From Candidatus Heimdallarchaeota archaeon (GTDB taxonomy: Archaea > Asgardarchaeota > Heimdallarchaeia > JABLTI01), in assembly GCA_019056785.1 (NCBI GenBank), contig DXJV01000011.1:1-18497 (forward strand): a stretch of DNA of 18,497 nt, in the 5' to 3' direction. The notes below the pieces were generated by a model, which did no database searches, had not been told where the DNA came from, and saw nothing but the letters and a program-made list of their open reading frames with translations. Numbering within the stretch: position 1 is the stretch's first letter; the number at the start of each line of letters is the position of its first letter. The position numbers were made by a program, and so were the translations under genes. Below, in pieces: positions 566-15,912 of this stretch.

Positions 566-1039
566 TTGCCGGTAAAAGAAGACCCTATACAAATTAAAGA
601 AATACAATTTTCAACCAGTGCACATGCAACAGAGGACTTACAAAAAGTTCGAGAAGCATTGCTTAATTTATTACCTGAACATTTGCGAGAAAAGGTGGAA
701 GTCAGAGACACGTTAATTACCGGCCACGCTGGAAATGAAATTCATCTCCTTGAGTTAAAAGTTAGCCAAAAAAAAGCCGTAAAAGAGATTTTGACTTATC
801 TGGGCGAACAATTAAACGAGTATGATGCAGAAAAACTGGGAGAGGAATTTGAAGCGCGAATCGACCAGGCAAATTGCTTCTATCTTAGATTAAATAAACA
901 AGCAGCCTATACAGGACAATTAGTTGTAGATGATAGCGATAACACAATACGATTAATGATAAAATTCATTATCTACAAACCAAACCCCACTCTCATCCCA
1001 AAAACACTCGCAGCATTTGGAATTATCAAAAAAGATTGA
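566..1039 (+). CDS. Predicted RNA-binding protein, DUF54 family (exosome-superoperon associated)
   Basis: HATEDLQKVREAL, GHAGNEI and FYLRLNKQAAY motifs. It occupies the canonical position between rpl15e and rpp30. Confidence 0.88.
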   Translation: MPVKEDPIQIKEIQFSTSAHATEDLQKVREALLNLLPEHLREKVEVRDTLITGHAGNEIHLLELKVSQKKAVKEILTYLGEQLNEYDAEKLGEEFEARIDQANCFYLRLNKQAAYTGQLVVDDSDNTIRLMIKFIIYKPNPTLIPKTLAAFGIIKKD

Positions 1040-1046
1040 TGTAAAA

Positions 1047-2174
1047 ATGATCCCCATCATCGAGCCCCAAGTCCATCTTGGAAAGAATTTCTCATTGGAG
1101 AGAGCGGATGCTCTTGCAGCTCGAGTTGGTTTGGAGGGGTTTCTGCTCACTGAGAAAAAGTTTGGTAAGCCCTTTTTAAAGCAAACCAGTAATTGTTCTA
1201 TGGCTGTTTATAGTCGAGTAACCATCGCTGGATCAAAGGTAGCAACTGTCCGGCGCCTTCTAGCAAAAGTACGAAAATCATTTGATGTTGTTGCCGTCCA
1301 AACAGCCGAGGCAAAAGTAGCACATTGGGTTGCAAAGGATAATCGTGTTGATATTCTTTCAATGCCTTCTTCATCAATGAAAGAACTCTTAACAAAACAA
1401 TTGACAAATGTTGCAGCACAAATACCTCTCTTCTTTGAAATCGATTTGAAGCCTTTTCTGGAAGAAAAAGCCCCCCCAGAAGTTAATTCAATTTATCTTA
1501 GACAAATCTCTCGTGCTCTTAATATTCTGTTACGAGAACGAGCGCCTTTCATCTTTACTTTAAATGTTGGTGAGCCATTTGCTTTTAAAGATGCGAGAAG
1601 CATTATTTCTTTTGCAAAAGTACTGGGTATTCCTTATCTTTCCTTAAAAGAAAATTATTTGAAATTCAAAGAACGGTTGGAGCGGAATCGGAAAAGGCTA
1701 ACCGAAGGGTTTGTTGCCCCGGGCATATGGAAAGTACCGGCGGAAGAGAAAAAATACCTGCCTAAGAAACAGAAAGAAACAGTCGAGAATACATTTGTGC
1801 TTTTGGAGGAGTTAAAACCGCAATCATTAAATGAGAAAAGACTCGAGAGACAGCGATATTTACTCTTTGAGATTATTAGTGAGAAAGAATTTGAGCTTTC
1901 GGAAAAAGAATTGATGAACATTTTCTGGAGTAAATTCCAAAAGCTCTTCGGAGAAATCAATAGTTCACGAGCAGGCATTTATTTGTCCTATTATTCAGCA
2001 GAAAAAAGAGTGGGCATTCTTCGAACCACCCATAAAATGGTTGATCCCGTTCGTGCAACGCTTTTAACAATTGGTGCTTTAAAAACAGAAAAAGTCATTG
2101 TTAATGTTCTCAAAATTTCGGGCACAATTTCAAATCTTCTTGCAACTGCGAAACAAAAATCGACTTCAAACTAA
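1047..2174 (+). CDS. Fused RNase P protein subunits Rpp30 (N-terminal) and Pop5 (C-terminal)
   Basis: Rpp30 TIM-barrel motifs (FDVVAVQ, AKDNRVDILS, FEIDLKPFL, C-terminal FVAPGIWKV) are followed in frame by Pop5 motifs (RQRYLLFEI, KLFGE, GILRTTH, VLKISGTI). ATG 1047 is preferred over TTG 1017, which overlaps the upstream gene. Confidence 0.88.
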   Translation: MIPIIEPQVHLGKNFSLERADALAARVGLEGFLLTEKKFGKPFLKQTSNCSMAVYSRVTIAGSKVATVRRLLAKVRKSFDVVAVQTAEAKVAHWVAKDNRVDILSMPSSSMKELLTKQLTNVAAQIPLFFEIDLKPFLEEKAPPEVNSIYLRQISRALNILLRERAPFIFTLNVGEPFAFKDARSIISFAKVLGIPYLSLKENYLKFKERLERNRKRLTEGFVAPGIWKVPAEEKKYLPKKQKETVENTFVLLEELKPQSLNEKRLERQRYLLFEIISEKEFELSEKELMNIFWSKFQKLFGEINSSRAGIYLSYYSAEKRVGILRTTHKMVDPVRATLLTIGALKTEKVIVNVLKISGTISNLLATAKQKSTSN

Positions 2175-2846: not shown

Positions 2847-2950
2847 ACCTTAACCTCAAGATATTTTCCTTGAAAAAGTTCTTTCACTATAAAAAAATTT
2901 CCTTCCCATTTTTTAGTTGTTTATACAGAAGAAGAACCAGAAAGGAAAAA

Positions 2951-3095
2951 ATAGTGGGAACTATACGGGAGTTAATGACAACTATGAGAAACTTTTAGGA
3001 AAGAAATAATTAACAACCAAATAAGGATAATTGAAACAATTATAGCTCAGATAGATATACGTTGGGCAGAATCAGAACGATTCAGAAAATATTAG
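2951..3095 (+). pseudogene. 3' remnant of a gene ending in the same DHp-like domain as 6767..8530
   Basis: 2988-3095 translates ETFRKEIINNQIRIIETIIAQIDIRWAESERFRKY*. This aligns without gaps to IAEQAKLIDETLQQLDRRWLES of the 6767..8530 protein. An in-frame TGA lies at 2985 and there is no start codon. Confidence 0.7.
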
Positions 3096-3201
3096 TTGAG
3101 ACTTTCAATTAAATAATAGTAAGAGCGCATGTTTTGATTTCGATTTAATTGCCGGTATAGTTAGACTATTTTAGTTAAAGGTATAATTGAACCTGAGACT
3201 T

Positions 3202-3468
3202 ATGACTATAAGTAATAATATTTTATTCTGTGATCATCGAAAGTATTGCGTTTCTTGTCATGAGAATTATTGGGTTTCAGATGAAACTAATTTGAGAAAA
3301 TATTACCATTGTAAGTATTGTCATATGGATATTTTATGTAAATTTGGTTTGGCTATTTCTTTCGAGTATGATGAATTTTCTATTAATAAGACTATCAGAT
3401 GTAACGTTTGTCACGAAATTGTTGAAGAACGTATTTGGCCTGAAGTTAAGCAAAAAGTAAAAGATTAA
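3202..3468 (+). CDS. Small Cys/His-rich metal-binding protein with three CxxCH motifs
   Basis: 88 aa from ATG 3202, with CDH, CVSCH, CKYCH and CNVCH. No signal peptide or TM segment is visible. A T9 tract follows at 3502-3510. Confidence 0.7.
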   Translation: MTISNNILFCDHRKYCVSCHENYWVSDETNLRKYYHCKYCHMDILCKFGLAISFEYDEFSINKTIRCNVCHEIVEERIWPEVKQKVKD

Positions 3469-3523
3469 GAGTTAATTTCATACGATAAAAGTCAAAAGGT
3501 GTTTTTTTTTCATTTGCCTAAAT

Positions 3524-3540
3524 AATGAGATTTATATATT
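3524..3540 (+). promoter_or_regulatory. Putative BRE/TATA promoter of the GTPase gene
   Basis: AATGAGA-TTTATATA about 45 nt upstream of ATG 3583. Confidence 0.5.
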
Positions 3541-3582
3541 CTAAAGCGAAAAAAGTATAAGATTAATTGTGGGGATTAGAAA

Positions 3583-4512
3583 ATGTCTAGAAAACCGATA
3601 GGCTGGTTACGAAAAGGTAAATCAGTTGTGATAATGGGCTTAGATTATGCAGGAAAATCCACTTTAGTAAATCAATGGACAAAAGGTGTTATGGAAAAAA
3701 CCGTTACAACAATTGGTTTAGATATAGAACATGTGGAAATTCAAGGAGAGACATTTAACTTAATTGATCTTGGTGGTCAACAGCCGTTTAGATTAACTAT
3801 TTGGAAAACATATGCACAAATGGCACAAGGAATAATATTTGTTTTCGATATAACAGATAAACGAAGAGTTGAAGAAGCAGTAGAGTGGTTCTGGAAAGTT
3901 ATTGAATGGTTAAGAGAAGATGCTCCTATTGTCTTCTGTGCAAATAAAATTGATTTAAGAGATGAAAAGAAAAAAGAAGCAATGAGTTTGGAAGAAATAA
4001 TCAATACATTTCAACTTGATAAATTAAGCCAAGAAGAATTTAATCAACATTCATTTAGGATTTTTGAAATATCTGCAAAAACCGGAGAAAATGTTCAGGA
4101 GGCTATGCAATGGATATTTGGTAGAGTTATTGGCTCAGATGAAAAATCAAAAATTAAAGCTGTCCAAATCTATTCCATTGAGAAAAACAAGTCAATTTTA
4201 GAATTGCCATTTAGTGAAGAATTTAATGAAATGCGGTATGATGAAAGCTTAATTGAAATTATAGATTATAACATTAAACTCTATAATAAAAGTCAATCTA
4301 CAATGCAATATTATGAACAAAATAAGTATGATGTATATATTTTTGCTCAAAAAGGATATTTATGTTTAATTGTAACTGATAAAGATGCTGAATATAATTC
4401 AATTCGAATAACAAGTCAAAGTATATTATCAGTTGTTGATGTACTTGAACAGGAAGGTAATCTAACACCTGAATTTTTAAAATGGGTCATAAAGGAAAGT
4501 TTTGGTGCTTAA
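3583..4512 (+). CDS. Arf/Sar-family small GTPase fused to a C-terminal longin-like domain
   Basis: G1 GLDYAGKST, G2 TTIG, G3 DLGGQ, IWKTY, G4 ANKID, G5 SAK. The C-terminal ~120 aa has a beta-beta-alpha-beta-beta-beta-alpha-alpha pattern (IKAVQIYS...YDVYIFAQKGYLCLIVTD); the longin assignment is inferred. Confidence 0.88.
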   Translation: MSRKPIGWLRKGKSVVIMGLDYAGKSTLVNQWTKGVMEKTVTTIGLDIEHVEIQGETFNLIDLGGQQPFRLTIWKTYAQMAQGIIFVFDITDKRRVEEAVEWFWKVIEWLREDAPIVFCANKIDLRDEKKKEAMSLEEIINTFQLDKLSQEEFNQHSFRIFEISAKTGENVQEAMQWIFGRVIGSDEKSKIKAVQIYSIEKNKSILELPFSEEFNEMRYDESLIEIIDYNIKLYNKSQSTMQYYEQNKYDVYIFAQKGYLCLIVTDKDAEYNSIRITSQSILSVVDVLEQEGNLTPEFLKWVIKESFGA

Positions 4513-4538
4513 ATCAAAAGTATAATTATTGAAATTAA

Positions 4539-5085
4539 ATGGTTCTTGAAGGTTTAATTCAATGCTTGTTGATGTATTAATATATGTCATTTAGATGACA
4601 AAGAGTTAATTTTAAGCGATTCAAAAACCTATGCAGATAATTTACTAAAGATAAACCTAAAATCAAAGATTGGTAAGAAACTTGAAGTTGTATTTCCGAT
4701 TTTAGAACATACTGAATTGATTAAACAATACAGAAAAGCAGAGATATGATGAAGATGGAGGATTTATTAGTCTGAAAATTTTTCAGATAAAATAACGAGA
4801 ATTTTTGGCATTAAAATATATCAAATAAAACCATGTTATCTAATCGTTCTCTTTCCGGATACTTCTGATAGAAGAGGAGTCTACTAGAAGGGAAGAAGCT
4901 TAAAACTAAGGGAATAGGATTTTCTATCGATAACAGCAATTCAACTTAATAACATGGATAACTCGAAAACACTTATCTTTGAGTTTATTAATATCACTAA
5001 AAATGATTAAAGTTTAGAGGGATAGACTTGAACTAAAAAAAAGGGCAATAAATGCACAACTATATCTATTTATTTAACTCGATAG
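4539..5085 (+). pseudogene. Degraded PAS-domain / histidine kinase gene
   Basis: Fragments interrupted by stops and shifts: ELILSDSKTYADNLLKINLKSKIGKKLEVVFPILEHTELIKQYRKA (PAS-like, within 4573-4749), IKIYQIKPCYLIVLFPDTSDRR (PAC-like), TKGIGFLSI (G2-box-like) and GNKCTTISIYLTR* (HATPase C-terminal strand-like). Confidence 0.65.
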
Positions 5086-5166
5086 TTTAATTGTTAATTA
5101 GTAAACATTTTAAATTAGTGTTGATAATTCGAAATCAGAAATCGTTATTATATGAAGTGATAGTCA

Positions 5167-6267
5167 TTGACTGACGAATTATCAATCATTGCTCTTTTAA
5201 AAGATCAAAATGAAGGAAAAAGATTAAGTGTTTTTCTTTCAAAACAAGAGTATCAAACAATAATACTATCAGATAGAAAAAATTTTAATTCACTGGTAGG
5301 GAAATATCGGCCACATATCGTAATTGTAGAACTTGAAAATCAAATAACAAGCGATCTCTCTTTTGTAAATTCAATGTGTGAGTTATCTAGCTCGACTTAT
5401 ATTATACTATTATATGAGCATTTTAACTCTGATTTCATGGAAAATATATTAACAATGGGATTTACATTTGGAATTATAAAAAAACCTGTTAAAAAACAAG
5501 AATTACTATATCTTCTAAGAAAATATAAATCAAGAAATAAAATTCAAATTGAAATTCAAAATGAGTTAAAGGAGCTATATGACTCTTATAATTACATTGA
5601 ATTCTTAAATACTATTTTAATTAACAATGTTGGAAACAATACTGATATTTTATCTGAGCTAGTCAATGAGTTGAATAATAAAGTTAGTAAAGAAAAAATG
5701 TTGAATAAAATAAAACTCATTCAGCAAAACAATAAGCTTCTTCTAAATAGAATTAATTTTATGCAGAAAATTGAGGAATATGATAGAGTTCAAAATACAA
5801 AGGTTGAATTGTTAGAGATTTTTAATAATGTAATTAAACAAATCAAAGAAGAGGAAAGCAATTTTACTACGGAATATTATATAAAGAACTCTGAAAATGC
5901 ATATGAAGTGATTGCTGTAAAAGAATTAATAGAAATCCTCGTTTATGAGGTAGTATATTCATTATCTGTGCCATATAATCAGCTTTGTAAGAAATTGGAA
6001 ATAGACTTCCGCTTTACAAATGATTTAAAAGATAAAGATGGAAAGCCAATTCCAACAATAGAATTTGATGTTAGATCAATTCTGGATAACCCCAATACAT
6101 CAGATGAAGAAATAACAATTAATCCAACTTTCCAACAATATGGCTTCGGGTTTTTTCTAATAAGGAGTATTATGGATAGATTAAATGGAGTAATTCAATT
6201 AAGAGATGAACCAAAAGAAGATTCCATTGAAACAATTCTAACTATCTTATTGCCAAGAAGTGTATAA
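5167..6267 (+). CDS. Pseudo-receiver plus degenerate histidine-kinase-like protein
   Basis: REC-like N-terminus (RPHIVIVEL, with E at the phospho-Asp site; IKKPV). The H-box region lacks His (FLNTILINNVGN) and there is no N-box. A HATPase C-terminus is retained (YGFGFFLIRSIMDRLNGVI...TILTILLP). Confidence 0.75.
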   Translation: MTDELSIIALLKDQNEGKRLSVFLSKQEYQTIILSDRKNFNSLVGKYRPHIVIVELENQITSDLSFVNSMCELSSSTYIILLYEHFNSDFMENILTMGFTFGIIKKPVKKQELLYLLRKYKSRNKIQIEIQNELKELYDSYNYIEFLNTILINNVGNNTDILSELVNELNNKVSKEKMLNKIKLIQQNNKLLLNRINFMQKIEEYDRVQNTKVELLEIFNNVIKQIKEEESNFTTEYYIKNSENAYEVIAVKELIEILVYEVVYSLSVPYNQLCKKLEIDFRFTNDLKDKDGKPIPTIEFDVRSILDNPNTSDEEITINPTFQQYGFGFFLIRSIMDRLNGVIQLRDEPKEDSIETILTILLPRSV

Positions 6268-6333
6268 TTGCTAATGCCTATTTCACAAAGCTTTTGAATC
6301 ATTAGAGGTTAGTACTTGATTAGGTGTGGGGAA

Positions 6334-6681
6334 ATGATGAAAAGTATATTGATAGTAGATGATAATGATAAGTTAAGATTAATATTCAAACTCATGCTTA
6401 AAGACTATGAAGTTGTAGAAGCTCAAAATGGAAAGGTAGCTTTAGAAATTGTTCGAAAAAGGAAATTTAACTTAGTCCTAATGGATATCTTAATGCCCGA
6501 AATGAATGGAATTATCGCTACACAAAAAATACTAGAAATTAGACCAAATTTGAATATTCTTGCAATAACTGCATATATTTCAAAAGCCAATGAAATATTA
6601 AAAGCAGGTGCAAAAGAAGTCTTAAAGAAACCGATAAGAAAACAATCATTACTTCAAAAAGTAGAAGAATATGTAAATTGA
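6334..6681 (+). CDS. Single-domain CheY-like response regulator
   Basis: ILIVDD, LVLMDILMPEMNG, AITAY and LKKP: all catalytic residues intact. SD-like AGGTG before ATG 6334. Confidence 0.95.
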   Translation: MMKSILIVDDNDKLRLIFKLMLKDYEVVEAQNGKVALEIVRKRKFNLVLMDILMPEMNGIIATQKILEIRPNLNILAITAYISKANEILKAGAKEVLKKPIRKQSLLQKVEEYVN

Positions 6682-6766
6682 ACTCCTGTTAAATATATTA
6701 TTACTATTTAATTCTTTTCTTACAGAAAAGATTGCAATAAATATCTCAGAAAAGGAAAAGATTTCG

Positions 6767-8530
6767 ATGAAATTCAGTAAAATACTACTTATTGATAATA
6801 ATAAGTCAATAAAAAAGTTGATACAAAAGATATTTCATGCAAGTAAATATAAAACACAAATTATTTTATGCAAAGATAAAAAGAATCTTATCGAGCAATT
6901 AAATACTCATAATTTTGATTTAATACTAATTAATAATGAATTAACGTGGACTTGTTCGAAAGCACTAATTGATCTCTTGATTGTGGAAAAACCATATGTT
7001 GGGAAGATAGTTTTTAGTCATAATTGTATTAATCAATTATCAAATGATCTATTATCAAAAGTAGAATTCGTAATTAATAAAATAAGAAAAAATAAAGAGA
7101 ATCTCTTGGCCACATTTACCTTTGCTTTTAATAGAGCCAAGGAAAAAAGAAAACTCGGGCGAATTAATGAAGAATTTCTAGCACTTTTTAACAATGTTCA
7201 CATTGGTTTATTTAAGCTTGATACTATAGGAAAAATACAAACTTGTAATGATACACTGGTTAAATTATTAGGATTTAACAGTAAAAGTGAACTAATAGGA
7301 CGTGAATTAAAGGATTTTATTATAGTTCAACATAATAAAAATCTTGATAATTTATCCAAAATTAATAATAAACAAGAAAATTTGCCATTTATTCAGGGTA
7401 AAGTCAAAATAAAACGGAAAGATGGCGAAATTATCTGGACAGCAATAGATACAAAGCCAATTTATTTTGAGAATAATATTTTCCTTAATTTGTATGGTAG
7501 TGTTAAAGATATTAGTGATGAAGTTAAACTAATTCAAGAAAAAAAAGACAGGCAAACTAATTTACAACTATTCATAGATTCTGCTAACACTTATTTTGTT
7601 GTTCTGGATAAAAATGGTTTAATTTTAATGGTTAATAAAAAATTAGCTGATTTCTATGGCTTGTCAAAAGAAGAATTAATCGGTAATAAATGGAGTGATG
7701 TTATTTTAAATAAAAAACAAAGAGAACGTTTTGAAGTTGCATTTAAAAATATTCTATCAGGTAATATCGAACATTACTTGCATACTGAAACACGTAGAAT
7801 TAATTCTCAAGGTGAAGAAATAGTCATTTTATGGCATAATACTGTTATAAAAAACGGGTATGAAATAACTGCCATAATAAGCTCTGGTATCGATATAACA
7901 GAAAGGAAAAAGTTAGAAGAAGCATTAAAAAACTCTGTAGAACTTTATCGAAGAGTTTTTGAAAATACCGGAACATCAATGGTTGTTGTTGAGGACAAGG
8001 AAACAATCATAGCATGTAATTCAAAATTTCAATTATTATCAGGTTATTCTCATGGAGAAATTATAAACAGTAAATGGAGTAAGTTTATTCATAAAAATGA
8101 TTTAGATTATCTAAATTTAATTGCAAAAGAAAGGTTTGAGAAACCAGAAAGCTTTCCAAGAAACATCAACTTCCGCATAATAACTTTAGATAATCAAAGT
8201 AAAACGATTTGGGCTGTAATTGATGCAATACCTAATACTCATAGAAGTGTTATTTCTATGCAGGATATAACTGATAAAATAATACTCGAGCAAGTAAAAG
8301 AAATGTCTTATCAACAGCTAGAAATGAATATAGAACAATTCGCAATTCTTATCGATAGTATTCGAAATCCAATTTCAGTTATCATGGGTCTTACAGATAT
8401 AGAAGAGAATGAAATAACTGCACAAATAGCAGAACAAGCAAAATTAATTGATGAGACACTACAACAGTTAGATAGACGATGGCTTGAATCAATAAATGTT
8501 AAAAATTTCTTATCAAAATATGAGAGCTAA
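6767..8530 (+). CDS. Pseudo-receiver plus three PAS domains plus C-terminal DHp/HisKA-like domain (no ATPase domain)
   Basis: REC-like (ILLID; FDLILINN, with N at the phospho-Asp site). Three PAS/PAC repeats end in VKDISD, GIDITERK and MQDITD. The tail is NIEQFAILIDSIRNPISVIMG...LDRRWLES. Confidence 0.85.
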   Translation: MKFSKILLIDNNKSIKKLIQKIFHASKYKTQIILCKDKKNLIEQLNTHNFDLILINNELTWTCSKALIDLLIVEKPYVGKIVFSHNCINQLSNDLLSKVEFVINKIRKNKENLLATFTFAFNRAKEKRKLGRINEEFLALFNNVHIGLFKLDTIGKIQTCNDTLVKLLGFNSKSELIGRELKDFIIVQHNKNLDNLSKINNKQENLPFIQGKVKIKRKDGEIIWTAIDTKPIYFENNIFLNLYGSVKDISDEVKLIQEKKDRQTNLQLFIDSANTYFVVLDKNGLILMVNKKLADFYGLSKEELIGNKWSDVILNKKQRERFEVAFKNILSGNIEHYLHTETRRINSQGEEIVILWHNTVIKNGYEITAIISSGIDITERKKLEEALKNSVELYRRVFENTGTSMVVVEDKETIIACNSKFQLLSGYSHGEIINSKWSKFIHKNDLDYLNLIAKERFEKPESFPRNINFRIITLDNQSKTIWAVIDAIPNTHRSVISMQDITDKIILEQVKEMSYQQLEMNIEQFAILIDSIRNPISVIMGLTDIEENEITAQIAEQAKLIDETLQQLDRRWLESINVKNFLSKYES

Positions 8531-8588
8531 TAGAGCTACAACTATTTTTGTTTTCTAGTTTTTTATATGAATATGTAAAAAAGTAGTA

Positions 8589-8660
8589 GGAGTCAGATCG
8601 TCGCATGCACATCACTTTGTGGTGTGGAATCCTCAGTCTGGGGCGTCTTCATCATTCTCC
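8589..8660 (-). ncRNA. Box C/D 2'-O-methylation guide sRNA
   Basis: Minus strand reads GGAG-A-[C box AUGAUGA]-AGACGCCCCAGA-[D' CUGA]-17 nt-[C' GUGAUGU]-GCAUGCGACGAU-[D CUGA]-CUCC. It has a 4-bp terminal stem and two 12-nt guides, with a TATA-like TTTTTAGA about 25 nt upstream. Confidence 0.9.
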
Positions 8661-13315: not shown

Positions 13316-13334
13316 GTATTAGGTGTGCAGTAAA

Positions 13335-14882
13335 ATGACTGAAAAGAGCCCACAAGATAAAGACCTTAAACCAGTCTCCTCCATCGACTCAGCGCCCTTA
13401 TTGGAAGAGACTTACCCTCTCATTCCTCCCTTCAGCTATTGTTTGATTCAGACAGACCCCATCTCCAATAGAACACAGTACATTGTGGTTGAAGTTCCAT
13501 TGGAGCAGAAAGAGGAGGAAAAGTTCAAGATCATTAAGCAGATTCTCATCGAAGAGCTCGACGTGGACTTTTCTCTCTTGAAAGAAAAGGACCGTGCCGC
13601 AGAATATTTGAGAAGAAAGGTTTTCGATATCGTTAAAGATTATAACCTCAAATTGAAAGATGATTCATTTGATCGAATCCTCTATTATGTACAGCGTGAT
13701 TTGTTAGGGTTTGGGAAAATTGAACCATTGTTAAAGGACCATATGATTGAAGACATCTCCTGCGATGGCGTTGGTGTTCCTATTTATGTCTGGCACCGGA
13801 AACATGAGTCTATCCCGACGAACATTGTCTTTGATGACGCGGAAGAACTCGACTCGTTTGTTATCAAACTTGCTCAAAGGTCCGGCCGACATATCAGCGT
13901 TGCTAATCCCATTGTTGACGCTTCGCTTGCAGACGGAAGCCGTATCAACATTACTTACGGGAAAGAAGTCACTCAAAGAGGTTCAACCTTCACTATCCGG
14001 AAATTCCGCTCAGACCCAATGACTATTACTGACCTTATCATGCTGAATACTATCGATCCTTTGATAGGGGCGTTCTATTGGTTTGTCATTGAGAATCGAC
14101 ATTCGGTCATGATTTCAGGTGGTGTGGCTTCCGGAAAAACCACCCTCTTGAACTGTATCTCTATGTTCATTCTACCAGATGCTAAGATTATCTCTATTGA
14201 AGATACCGCTGAAATTAATCTCCCCCACGAGAATTGGATTCCTTCGGTCTCGAGATTGGGGTTTGGTGGCATAGAAAAAGATGGCAAAAAGCGAGGAGAA
14301 ATCTCAATGTTCGACCTCCTCAAAGCAGCTTTGCGACAAAGGCCAGATTATATCCTCGTAGGTGAAATCCGTGGTGAGGAGGCGTATATGCTCTTCCAGT
14401 CAATGGCAACAGGGCATCTCGGTTTGGCAACCATTCATGGTGACTCTGTCGAATCAGTCATTCATCGTCTCGAGTCAGAACCAATGAATATTCCCCGAAC
14501 ATTATTACGTTCCCTTGACATTGTCGCTGTGCAAGCAAAAGTACGCTTGGGCGGGAAATTCATGCGCCGAACTGTTGAGGTCACAGAAATTGCCGGCGTA
14601 GATCCAGTTACTAATGAGTTGTTAACTAATCCTGTCTTCAAATGGAATCCCAGAGAAGACAATTTCACCTTCTATGGTCGTTCCTATATTGTTGAACGTA
14701 TTCGCGACCAATTAGGATGGACCGACCAAGAATGTTGGGATGAAATTGAGAAACGGAAAACCGTTCTCCGCTGGATGGTCAAGAAGAAGATCCGCCACTG
14801 GCAAGATGTGGCTACTGTCGTTAGAGAATATTATAGTAATCCACAACGAACTTATGATAGGGCTGTTAAAGGTTTGGAATAA
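13335..14882 (+). CDS. Type IV pilus/archaellum-type assembly ATPase (PilB/ArlI/TadA family)
   Basis: IEDISCDG, STFTIRKF, Walker A GGVASGKT, SIEDTAE, ALRQRPDYILVGEIRG and MATGH...TIH motifs. The start may instead be GTG 13323. Confidence 0.95.
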   Translation: MTEKSPQDKDLKPVSSIDSAPLLEETYPLIPPFSYCLIQTDPISNRTQYIVVEVPLEQKEEEKFKIIKQILIEELDVDFSLLKEKDRAAEYLRRKVFDIVKDYNLKLKDDSFDRILYYVQRDLLGFGKIEPLLKDHMIEDISCDGVGVPIYVWHRKHESIPTNIVFDDAEELDSFVIKLAQRSGRHISVANPIVDASLADGSRINITYGKEVTQRGSTFTIRKFRSDPMTITDLIMLNTIDPLIGAFYWFVIENRHSVMISGGVASGKTTLLNCISMFILPDAKIISIEDTAEINLPHENWIPSVSRLGFGGIEKDGKKRGEISMFDLLKAALRQRPDYILVGEIRGEEAYMLFQSMATGHLGLATIHGDSVESVIHRLESEPMNIPRTLLRSLDIVAVQAKVRLGGKFMRRTVEVTEIAGVDPVTNELLTNPVFKWNPREDNFTFYGRSYIVERIRDQLGWTDQECWDEIEKRKTVLRWMVKKKIRHWQDVATVVREYYSNPQRTYDRAVKGLE

Positions 14883-14920
14883 AAGAAAAACCAACTCCCG
14901 CTACCCCTCACAAAGAGTGC

Positions 14921-14951
14921 CCTCTTTTTCCATTTTTTCTCTTTTCACCTC
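14921..14951 (+). terminator. Pyrimidine-rich terminator-like tract after the ATPase
   Basis: CCTCTTTTTCCATTTTTTCTCTTTTCACCTC. Confidence 0.45.
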
Positions 14952-15036
14952 TTAAAAGGCGTTTTTCTTATATGAGTACTAGAACATTAAATTTTAAAAT
15001 GAAGAAAGTCTAATACTTTTAGAGGAAGGTAAGCAC

Positions 15037-15912
15037 ATGAGTAAAGGATTTCGAAGAATTGCGTATTTGCGTTTTGGTAAGATGATGGAGCCGCTCTTAC
15101 CTCGTTTCAGTGAATTGGGGAAAACGTTGAGAAAAGCAGGGATGGAAGTCAGCCTTCGAATGTATCTCTCTACAAGTTTTCTCACAATTATAATCTCTTT
15201 AATTTTGGCTTTCCCGGCAACATTGGGTATTCTATATGCCTTCAATGGCGCTTTGACCGGAACCGTTTGGTTCAGCGCAACAATCATCGGTTTATTGGTC
15301 CCATTTGTCGTTGCTATGGGATTTCTAGTCTATCCACGATATGTTGCCAGTAACCGTAAACGTGCCCTTGAATCCTCGCTGCCGACAGCAAGCTCGTTCC
15401 TAGCCGCAATGGCTTCCGCTGGCGTGGCACCAGATAAGGCGTTTCTAGCACTCGCCAATGAAAATATTCAATTGGAGATTGCCAAAGAAGCCGAGAAAAT
15501 TTCTCGAAATATCGAAATCCTAGGATATGACCTACTGACTGCAATAGAAATTGCTGCAGAGAACTCACCATCAAAAGTTTACTCAGCCTTTCTCGAGGGA
15601 TTAATTTCAGTAATCAATTCCGGTGGAGACCTGACAAGCTATCTCACAAATGAAACCAAGTCTTTGATGCGCGATAAAATTAGAGAAGAAAAAGAGTTCA
15701 TTGAAGGCCTTGGCGTAATAGCAGAGCTTTTCCTCGTTATCGGTGTTGTGTCACCTATCTTCTTCATCATAATGCTCGCAGTCTTAGCGATAATGTCTAC
15801 CGATGCAAGTAATCAAGGAACAATCCTGATGACTCTCTTAACGTATGTCCTTATACCAATCGGAATGTCAATTATTATTATTCTCATAGATGGAATGCAA
15901 CCATCAGAATAA
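15037..15912 (+). CDS. Type II secretion F / TadC-like membrane platform protein
   Basis: LRKAGM, YP...RKRALESSLP...MASAG, GYDLLTAI, SPS...FLEG...SGGDL motifs and about four TM segments. Confidence 0.92.
   Translation: MSKGFRRIAYLRFGKMMEPLLPRFSELGKTLRKAGMEVSLRMYLSTSFLTIIISLILAFPATLGILYAFNGALTGTVWFSATIIGLLVPFVVAMGFLVYPRYVASNRKRALESSLPTASSFLAAMASAGVAPDKAFLALANENIQLEIAKEAEKISRNIEILGYDLLTAIEIAAENSPSKVYSAFLEGLISVINSGGDLTSYLTNETKSLMRDKIREEKEFIEGLGVIAELFLVIGVVSPIFFIIMLAVLAIMSTDASNQGTILMTLLTYVLIPIGMSIIIILIDGMQPSE

Follow-up and report, generated by a model that had tools for sequence, protein, structure and literature searches.

What regulates a small GTPase of Rag/Gtr-like layout that is encoded among two-component-type proteins, when two of the three receivers at the locus have lost the phosphoacceptor Asp? 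This question is raised by an AT-rich accessory island (~2900..8600, plus strand; borders approximate) in an 18,497-nucleotide stretch of a Candidatus Heimdallarchaeota archaeon (GCA_019056785.1, contig DXJV01000011.1). This stretch, referred to here as the window, is an entire 18.5-kb contig (C78) of a 2.87-Mb genome (G000) that comprises 102 contigs and is estimated to be 82.5% complete; the named relatives of its proteins belong to Heimdallarchaeota or Heimdallarchaeaceae metagenome-assembled genomes. A gene for a receiver–pseudo-histidine-kinase directly adjoins the GTPase gene at every orthologous locus, and the recurrence of this pairing in sister species makes a functional link likely, as judged from sequence. 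Our tentative answer, held at slightly less than even confidence, is that this is a laterally acquired accessory signalling island, confined to one genus-level Heimdallarchaeia clade, in which the two-component-derived neighbours control the GTPase by binding and not by phosphotransfer.

The adjacency was examined in eight loci with full-length GTPase orthologues (70-80% identity), namely the window lineage, L019, L021, L013 (G008), L025, L014 (G010), L015 (G002) and L031. The pseudo-kinase gene directly adjoins the GTPase gene in 8/8 of them, in at least three gene arrangements: the two genes point the same way in the window and L019, and they converge, with gaps of 17-60 bp, in L013, L014, L015, L021, L025 and L031. 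Among the loci whose contig permits checking, a CheY gene lies one or two genes away in five and ~8 kb away in L014, and pseudo-receiver–PAS proteins are encoded in three of the eight. Moreover, four of the 11 genomes of the genus have the GTPase orthologue, and the same four have the cluster-type pseudo-kinase (the pseudo-kinase accompanies the GTPase in 4/4 and is found without it in 0/7).

The small GTPase (3583..4512, plus strand) is a protein of 309 amino acids (aa) with an Arf-like G domain (residues ~10-185) followed by a longin/roadblock-type domain (~190-307). It matches Pfam Arf (PF00025) with an E-value (E) of 3.5e-33, and its G1-G5 motifs, including DxxGQ with the catalytic Gln, are invariant in 54 sequences (G19/G24/K25, T43, D62/G65/Q66, N121/K122/D124 and S164/A165). 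The ratio of nonsynonymous to synonymous divergence (dN/dS), calculated here and below against a 96%-identical strain, is 0.10. Judged by these residues and this ratio, the GTPase is predicted to be catalytically competent and is strongly constrained. The N-terminus reads MSRKPIGWLRKGK, has a short basic/aromatic stretch and lacks the Gly2 of an Arf-type myristoylation site.

An alignment-based AlphaFold model of the GTPase (predicted local distance difference test score, pLDDT, 81) replaced a single-sequence model of pLDDT 42. Residues 1-12 are unstructured in this model, which leaves no Arf-type amphipathic helix. DSSP assigned the C-terminal domain the order ββαβββαα (E191-198, E203-209, H221-236, E240-245, E250-256, E259-265, H271-291 and H296-307), which, with no N-terminal helix, is the longin order. 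Foldseek placed the G domain nearest Asgard ArfR1 and eukaryotic Arf/Arl. The full-length model was aligned by Foldseek and VIA-align to LokiRagO (8yl2; Z 19.6, 251 residues), LokiRagM (9m28) and Gtr1, and full-length alignments were also obtained to the Rag/Gtr structures 4arz, 6u62 and 8fw5; the model thus has the Rag/Gtr architecture, a single chain in which a roadblock-type domain follows the G domain. The Gtr1_RagA signature (PF04670) is absent from the Pfam matches of the window GTPase at E <= 0.01 and appears weakly in the precomputed matches of some orthologues. A profile of 22 C-terminal domains gave no PDB match better than E 0.3, Pfam Longin matched 2 of these 22 domains at E 0.019, and an atlas feature search with the domain returned Fuz_longin_1 and Robl_LC7 as weak leads (scores 0.76-0.81). 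G-domain matches dominated the wide VIA search, and we therefore call the domain longin/roadblock-type. The domain most likely serves dimerisation or the docking of a regulator. As a separate observation, a contig from elsewhere in the Heimdall group (L024:480-9088) carries two GTPase-longin paralogues, ~40-50% identical to the window protein, that flank two large TPR proteins, and this set adjoins Vps4-like and ESCRT-II genes.

The neighbour of the GTPase, a receiver–pseudo-histidine-kinase of 366 aa (5167..6267, plus strand), has a receiver (REC) domain with Asp replaced by Glu, a DHp domain with His replaced by Asn, and an ATPase-like domain without N and G1 boxes. A word-based search for homologues gave only near-identical sequences, and an exhaustive profile search was used instead. 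The family profile matches PDB receivers of the Spo0F type at E 2.5e-13 and aligns end to end, in one stretch, with the REC-HisKA-HATPase_c proteins P0231, P0223 and P0137; HATPase_c is sub-threshold within the family (E 0.13 to 1.3e-4). The receiver acceptor Asp is Glu (IVIVEL). At the position of the H-box His, all pseudo-kinases beside an orthologous GTPase have Asn, and more distant family members have Arg or Gln. In alignment A5, the N-box Asn is replaced and the DxGxG of G1 is lost, and part of G2 (YGFGF) remains. Because the acceptor His, the N-box Asn and G1 are lost, we regard the protein as a pseudo-kinase and not as a kinase. Its dN/dS is 0.39. Two distant members of the family (L028:4605-7116 and L030:3252-4355) have an intact acceptor Asp, with the His replaced by Arg or Gln; they share a conserved neighbourhood of GT4 glycosyltransferase, acetyltransferase, VTT-domain and ArsA genes, with an actin-family gene in L028.

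Downstream of the pseudo-kinase lies an intact single-domain CheY-like receiver (6337..6681, plus strand; alternative TTG start at 6316), which matches Pfam Response_reg at E 6.9e-25. Its DD, D (LMDILMP), T (AITAY) and K (KKP) residues are invariant in seven orthologues, and its orthologues in sister clusters are ~60% identical; dN/dS is 0.33. The last gene of the island encodes a pseudo-receiver–3×PAS–DHp-like protein of 587 aa (6767..8530, plus strand), which has Asp replaced by Asn in the receiver and His by Asp in the tail. Pfam PAS families match it at E 1e-22 to 1e-29, and REC (E 3.6e-4) and HisKA (E 4.4e-3) match below the Pfam cut-off. The orthologues from L014 and L021 also have Asn at the acceptor position (LILINN). 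Of three orthologues compared, two have the tail motif D-x-I-R-N-P and one has D-K-I-R-N-S, and Pfam finds HATPase_c neither in the window protein nor in any orthologue examined. Its dN/dS is 0.45.

The window therefore holds one receiver with a phosphorylatable Asp (CheY), the other two having Glu and Asn, and no intact histidine kinase: the genome has eight HATPase_c matches, which all lie on other contigs and of which five are strong and histidine-kinase-like. The genome contains only 11 receiver matches. In the initial annotation, an Arf-like GTPase-longin fusion, a pseudo-REC/pseudo-kinase, an intact CheY-like receiver and a pseudo-REC-3xPAS-DHp-like protein had been described, with one phosphorylatable receiver of three and no intact His kinase; all of these descriptions stand, the C-terminal domain of the GTPase being now worded as longin/roadblock-type. 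Selection does constrain the two-component-like genes (dN/dS 0.33-0.45, below 1), although less than the flanking genes (0.01-0.20). The inactivating substitutions are common to orthologues only 23-35% identical, and the loss of phosphotransfer is therefore old and maintained and not the product of recent decay.

The island itself stands out by composition. GC content is 25-30% over ~2900-8600 vs 38-44% in the flanks, and no other 5-kb segment of the genome has a GC fraction as low as that found here (0.273 vs a mean of 0.386, standard deviation 0.021). GC at third codon positions is 0.18-0.23 in island genes vs 0.30-0.45 in flanking genes. With its five open reading frames (ORFs) all on the plus strand, the locus is indeed the co-oriented AT-rich cluster that had been proposed. 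The island recurs with the same flanks in GCA_021498085.1 (on a contig of 549 kb), in the 96%-identical strain GCA_054386155.1 and in a Logan assembly, and contigs from four public runs of four studies span the island and bridge both junctions. Because the same island and flanks recur in independent assemblies and runs, the island is not an assembly chimera.

Several observations bear on its origin. In the sister genome G005, RNase P and ScpB are separated by ~0.9 kb and the island genes are absent between them. The orthologous clusters of sister species lie in very different genomic contexts, and at most of these loci the GC content is 29-31% over the full length. L019 is the closest relative: its GTPase is 80% identical, its CxxC protein, GTPase and REC genes are in the same order, and its GC content is 31%. 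The island was probably acquired laterally, and its donor was probably an unsampled low-GC congener. Compared with the 96%-identical strain (L026), positions 3400-8100 of the window diverge in blocks (3400-3900, 4000-4400, 5700-6200 and 7700-8100) with near-identical stretches between them; synonymous divergence per gene ranges from 0.006 to 0.35, a recombination mosaic, and this block-wise divergence points to ongoing recombination.

The borders of the island were also inspected. Contigs from other runs leave the window sequence at 3006 and 8545; at 3006, Logan contigs from three runs of different studies share one 30-nucleotide continuation, and one contig joins at 8545. Neither continuation matched the genome or the fetched loci. 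Such divergence may reflect an empty site or another allele at the borders of the island. The left edge (3009..3092, plus strand) holds a possible remnant of the DHp-like tail of a second PAS-type gene: in tblastn against the tail of the 587-aa protein, it is identical at 9/28 positions with E 0.002, a weak match in a 340-bp search space, and it fits the orthologue consensus Q-I-x-I-I...Q-x-D-x-R-W-x-E-S. At the island ends we found no direct or inverted flanking repeats beyond chance AT-rich matches, and no tRNA or integrase. At the right edge, positions 8590-8659 (minus strand) gave a sub-threshold Rfam match to snoPyro_CD, an archaeal C/D box small RNA (24.7 bits vs a gathering threshold of 45; E 0.068).

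The first gene of the island (3187..3468, plus strand) encodes a protein of 93 aa with eight Cys and three lineage-specific CxxCH motifs. It had been listed as a CxxCH protein; the motifs are literally present, and a heme reading of them fails. Only the eight Cys are invariant across five homologues (alignment A6), 3/4 orthologues do not conserve the His that follows each CxxC, the Pfam cytochrome c3/c7 scores of 16-17 bits lie under cut-offs of ~25, and no signal-like segment was seen at the N-terminus. A c-type cytochrome or heme protein was therefore rejected, and the sequence is best read as that of a conserved zinc-ribbon-like protein. Its gene is present in four of the eight orthologous loci and adjoins the cluster in L019, L015 and L031.

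Between the GTPase and pseudo-kinase genes lies a spacer of 654 bp (4513..5166) with no recognisable gene. A PAS/kinase pseudogene had been placed in it, which our searches do not bear out: a six-frame reading gave no ORF longer than 42 aa; Pfam (with stop-free fragments), Rfam and phmmer (with all cluster and neighbour proteins) gave no match; and neither tblastx nor blastn matched it to the region downstream in L019. The spacer is single-copy in the genome. It is 99.2% identical to the sister strain, which might be taken for constraint; this idea was dropped, as the identity belongs to a larger low-divergence block (4400-5700).

The genes that flank the island are ordinary housekeeping genes. 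On the left are genes for an RNA-binding protein, a fused Rpp30–Pop5 RNase P subunit and a histidine phosphatase (minus strand); in the fusion, one ORF (1017-2174, plus strand) carries the RNase P p30 and Rpp14/Pop5 Pfam domains, that is, two RNase P subunits. On the right, the island is followed by genes for ScpB, a PRC-barrel protein and succinyl-CoA synthetase β and α, and by type IV pilus/archaellum-like T2SSE/T2SSF-type ATPase and platform genes (13323-15912), ~5 kb downstream of the island. The 99%-identical assembly GCA_021498085.1 has an additional gene of 749 aa without a Pfam match in the interval between the PRC-barrel and succinyl-CoA synthetase genes (L017:17013-19262), which is missing from the window and from L026.

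Genes resembling folliculin provide a further connection between receivers and candidate GTPase regulators. In L013, L025 and L015, a protein of 412-417 aa that scores above the Pfam Folliculin (PF11704) cut-off, and that also has a weak C9orf72-like match, is encoded next to CheY within the cluster. A second folliculin-like gene is present in all genomes of the genus and is convergent with a single-domain receiver gene in 12/12 assessable loci; the loci considered were G000 C31, L037-L046, L065 and L066. In the genome studied here, this folliculin-like gene (C31:78845-80191, plus strand) and its receiver partner (C31:80214-80582, minus strand) form such a pair, unlinked to the island. The folliculin-like proteins keep invariant "FDD..GP" and "RG" motifs, and the Arg of the latter may correspond to human FLCN Arg164. 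Distant folliculin-like homologues in another family of the class have no receiver neighbour.

Starting from the observed domain content, intact and dead residues, purifying selection and conserved adjacency, we infer every protein-protein contact and the direction of signalling in the following scheme. The core switch would be the competent GTPase, its Arf-like G domain followed by the longin/roadblock-type domain. CheY would be phosphorylated by one of the ~five histidine kinases encoded elsewhere. The pseudo-kinase and the PAS–DHp-like protein are predicted to retain the helical DHp surface, the usual dock of a receiver; since they cannot autophosphorylate, they would instead read the CheY/CheY~P state and a PAS-sensed signal. 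Signal flow would be reversed, as in Caulobacter, where the pseudo-histidine kinase DivL reads the state of DivK~P. The two proteins would then relay the state of CheY and PAS to the nucleotide state or the location of the GTPase. In sister species, the clustered folliculin-like longin protein is a candidate GTPase-activating protein (GAP). A complex prediction for pseudo-kinase and CheY with the GTPase as partner scored 0.00, which is evidence neither way.

The strongest competing explanation, to which we assign a substantial minority of the probability, is co-location without functional coupling: the GTPase, one of ~38 paralogues, would ride on the same mobile island as a phosphorylation-independent PAS/receiver module, and the two would act in separate pathways. 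Several findings weigh in its favour and against control of the GTPase by its neighbours. The association is limited to one shallow, genus-level clade in which the whole block shifts between genomic contexts, and it could result from common descent on a mobile island. No REC/PAS genes adjoin the GTPase relatives at 48-61% identity, which are found beside RNA polymerase, Vps4/ESCRT-II/TPR, β-lactamase and lactate permease genes. Distant relatives of the pseudo-kinase, which lie beside actin, glycosyltransferase and ArsA genes, have no GTPase neighbour. The suggested recurrence of REC/PAS genes near homologues of the GTPase thus holds in a narrow clade and fails beyond it. Receivers are not enriched near GTPases genome-wide, as one occurs within 3 kb of 1/38 GTPase ORFs vs 0.7 expected by chance, and Asgard GTPase genes are generally not in operons with regulators (Tran et al., PMC10933270). 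In the window, the 654-bp gap between the GTPase and the downstream three genes makes co-transcription unlikely, and the folliculin-like gene is absent from the island.

Nevertheless, the adjacency of GTPase and pseudo-kinase has outlasted at least one inversion and several changes of context while other neighbours changed. Where the two genes converge, the gaps are merely those 17-60 bp, and their co-occurrence in the genomes of the genus is strict. In addition, receivers are paired genus-wide with a folliculin-like candidate GTPase regulator. Control of the GTPase by its two-component-derived neighbours is the preferred, tentative reading.

Alternatively, the two-component-like genes could form a working unit with an output other than the GTPase, for example by sequestering or dephosphorylating CheY~P and thereby tuning a pilus/archaellum-like ATPase pathway. 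The Asn at position H+4 is part of the phosphatase motif of HisKA kinases. This residue is retained in the tail of the PAS protein (D-S-I-R-N-P), and the T2SSE/T2SSF genes are found in the right flank. However, these pilus genes belong to the native flank outside the island and are not near the cluster in any sister locus, and the GTPase is the only constant neighbour of the pseudo-kinase in the clade; we consider such a unit quite improbable. Finally, it is barely credible that the island is a decaying relic, a foreign insertion being lost whose "dead" two-component genes are turning into pseudogenes without present function, since its strongly atypical composition, the truncated remnant at its left edge, the 654-bp gene-free stretch and the higher dN/dS of the three two-component-like genes relative to the flanks are outweighed by five frames that are open in three assemblies of two strains, by dN/dS below 1 in every gene (0.10 in the GTPase) and by the same inactivating substitutions in highly diverged orthologues.

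How much of this is new? The label of a candidate new system, given in the initial annotation, was too strong. Rag-like GTPases of Asgard archaea, often annotated as Arf and fused to longin or roadblock domains, have been reported (Tran et al. 2024, PMC10933270), and the same GTPase-longin class was listed by Liu et al. 2020 (bioRxiv 10.1101/2020.10.19.343400), who also described Asgard longin regulators coupled or fused to two-component domains in growth signalling. Modules of histidine kinase, roadblock protein and GTPase are known in bacteria as the conservon (PMC4316618). What appears to be new is that a receiver–pseudo-kinase family and a live CheY are paired, in a conserved manner, with a Rag-like GTPase; we found no mention of this in the literature searched. 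The form in the window is a reduced, laterally acquired one from a narrow clade, without the folliculin-like gene.

Heimdallarchaeia are among the closest known relatives of eukaryotes. The roles and regulators of their many Rag/Arf-like GTPases are an open question (PMC10933270, PMC12290439). The neighbours of most Asgard GTPase genes are uninformative, and the clade studied here offers a small, conserved set of candidate partners: the pseudo-kinase, one live receiver, a PAS sensor and, in sister species, the folliculin-like protein. If the link is true, it would give an Asgard Rag-like switch its first concrete input pathway, and would show how control of a eukaryote-type GTPase was built onto two-component signalling, in line with a general proposal by Liu et al. 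If it is false, what remains is a laterally moving island with an interesting, unlinked family of pseudo-kinases.

The proposed arrangement resembles several known systems in part. Like DivL, the pseudo-kinase is a histidine-kinase-like protein that lacks the acceptor His, and its gene lies beside that of an intact single-domain receiver. However, DivL keeps its ATP-binding domain and regulates another kinase, not a GTPase, and the two are not known to share a sequence relationship beyond the histidine-kinase fold. In Myxococcus, receiver proteins (RomR, FrzX/FrzZ) and the roadblock protein MglB jointly control the small GTPase MglA (PMC4316618, PMC3441718, PMC9481161), as receiver-domain proteins and a roadblock-type domain would in the scheme proposed here. 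There, however, the receiver genes are not clustered with mglA (PMC4316618), and the receivers are phosphorylated by a Che-type kinase with no pseudo-kinase involved.

The actinobacterial conservon consists of the histidine kinase CvnA, the roadblock protein CvnB, CvnC and the Ras-like GTPase CvnD (PMC4316618). As at our locus, one group of genes specifies a kinase-type protein, a roadblock-superfamily module and a small GTPase, and the GTPase, not a response regulator, is the proposed output. In the window, by contrast, the roadblock/longin module is fused to the GTPase, which is Arf-like and not MglA-like; the kinase-like protein, which is soluble, includes a receiver and no longer has the His, the N box or G1; and a separate intact receiver and a PAS protein are added. 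The conservon set of four genes (a membrane histidine kinase with an LPxR tail, an MglB-type roadblock protein, CvnC and an MglA-type GTPase) was not found in the window, which encodes no membrane kinase, no stand-alone roadblock protein and nothing resembling CvnC. The conservon and MglA/RomR would be functional analogues only.

A further comparison is with the solved Asgard Rag-like GTPases. They share with the window protein a G domain followed by a ~120-aa C-terminal αβ domain, over 246-251 aligned residues, and a G domain that is Arf by sequence in a protein that is Rag-like by architecture. They differ in that the window GTPase is only ~15-20% identical to LokiRagO and LokiRagM and that its C-terminal domain has no significant sequence-profile match. 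The pseudo-kinase and receiver neighbourhood is not described for the published Asgard GTPase-longin fusions, and the term "response regulator" occurs 0 times in PMC10933270.

The last comparison is with the eukaryotic Rag GTPases and their folliculin–FNIP longin-DENN GAP, and with the FLCN/SMCR8-type longins of Asgard archaea, which have the GP motif and an Arg finger and whose partner GTPases are the question posed in PMC12290439. The folliculin-like gene of this genome, a putative GAP, differs from these in lying outside the window, on C31. The likeness is that the window GTPase has the Rag layout, and that the sister clusters encode a protein which passes the Pfam Folliculin cut-off and has the invariant "GP" and "RG". 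A bolder proposal, which we consider unlikely, is that a phosphotransfer-dead scaffold (receiver–pseudo-kinase and pseudo-receiver–PAS–DHp) reads the one live CheY and regulates the Arf-like GTPase of Rag architecture, with the folliculin-like protein as its GAP in sister species. Rag–folliculin nutrient signalling would then have an archaeal forerunner with prokaryotic sensors still wired in, and the GTPase partner sought in PMC12290439 would thereby be identified.

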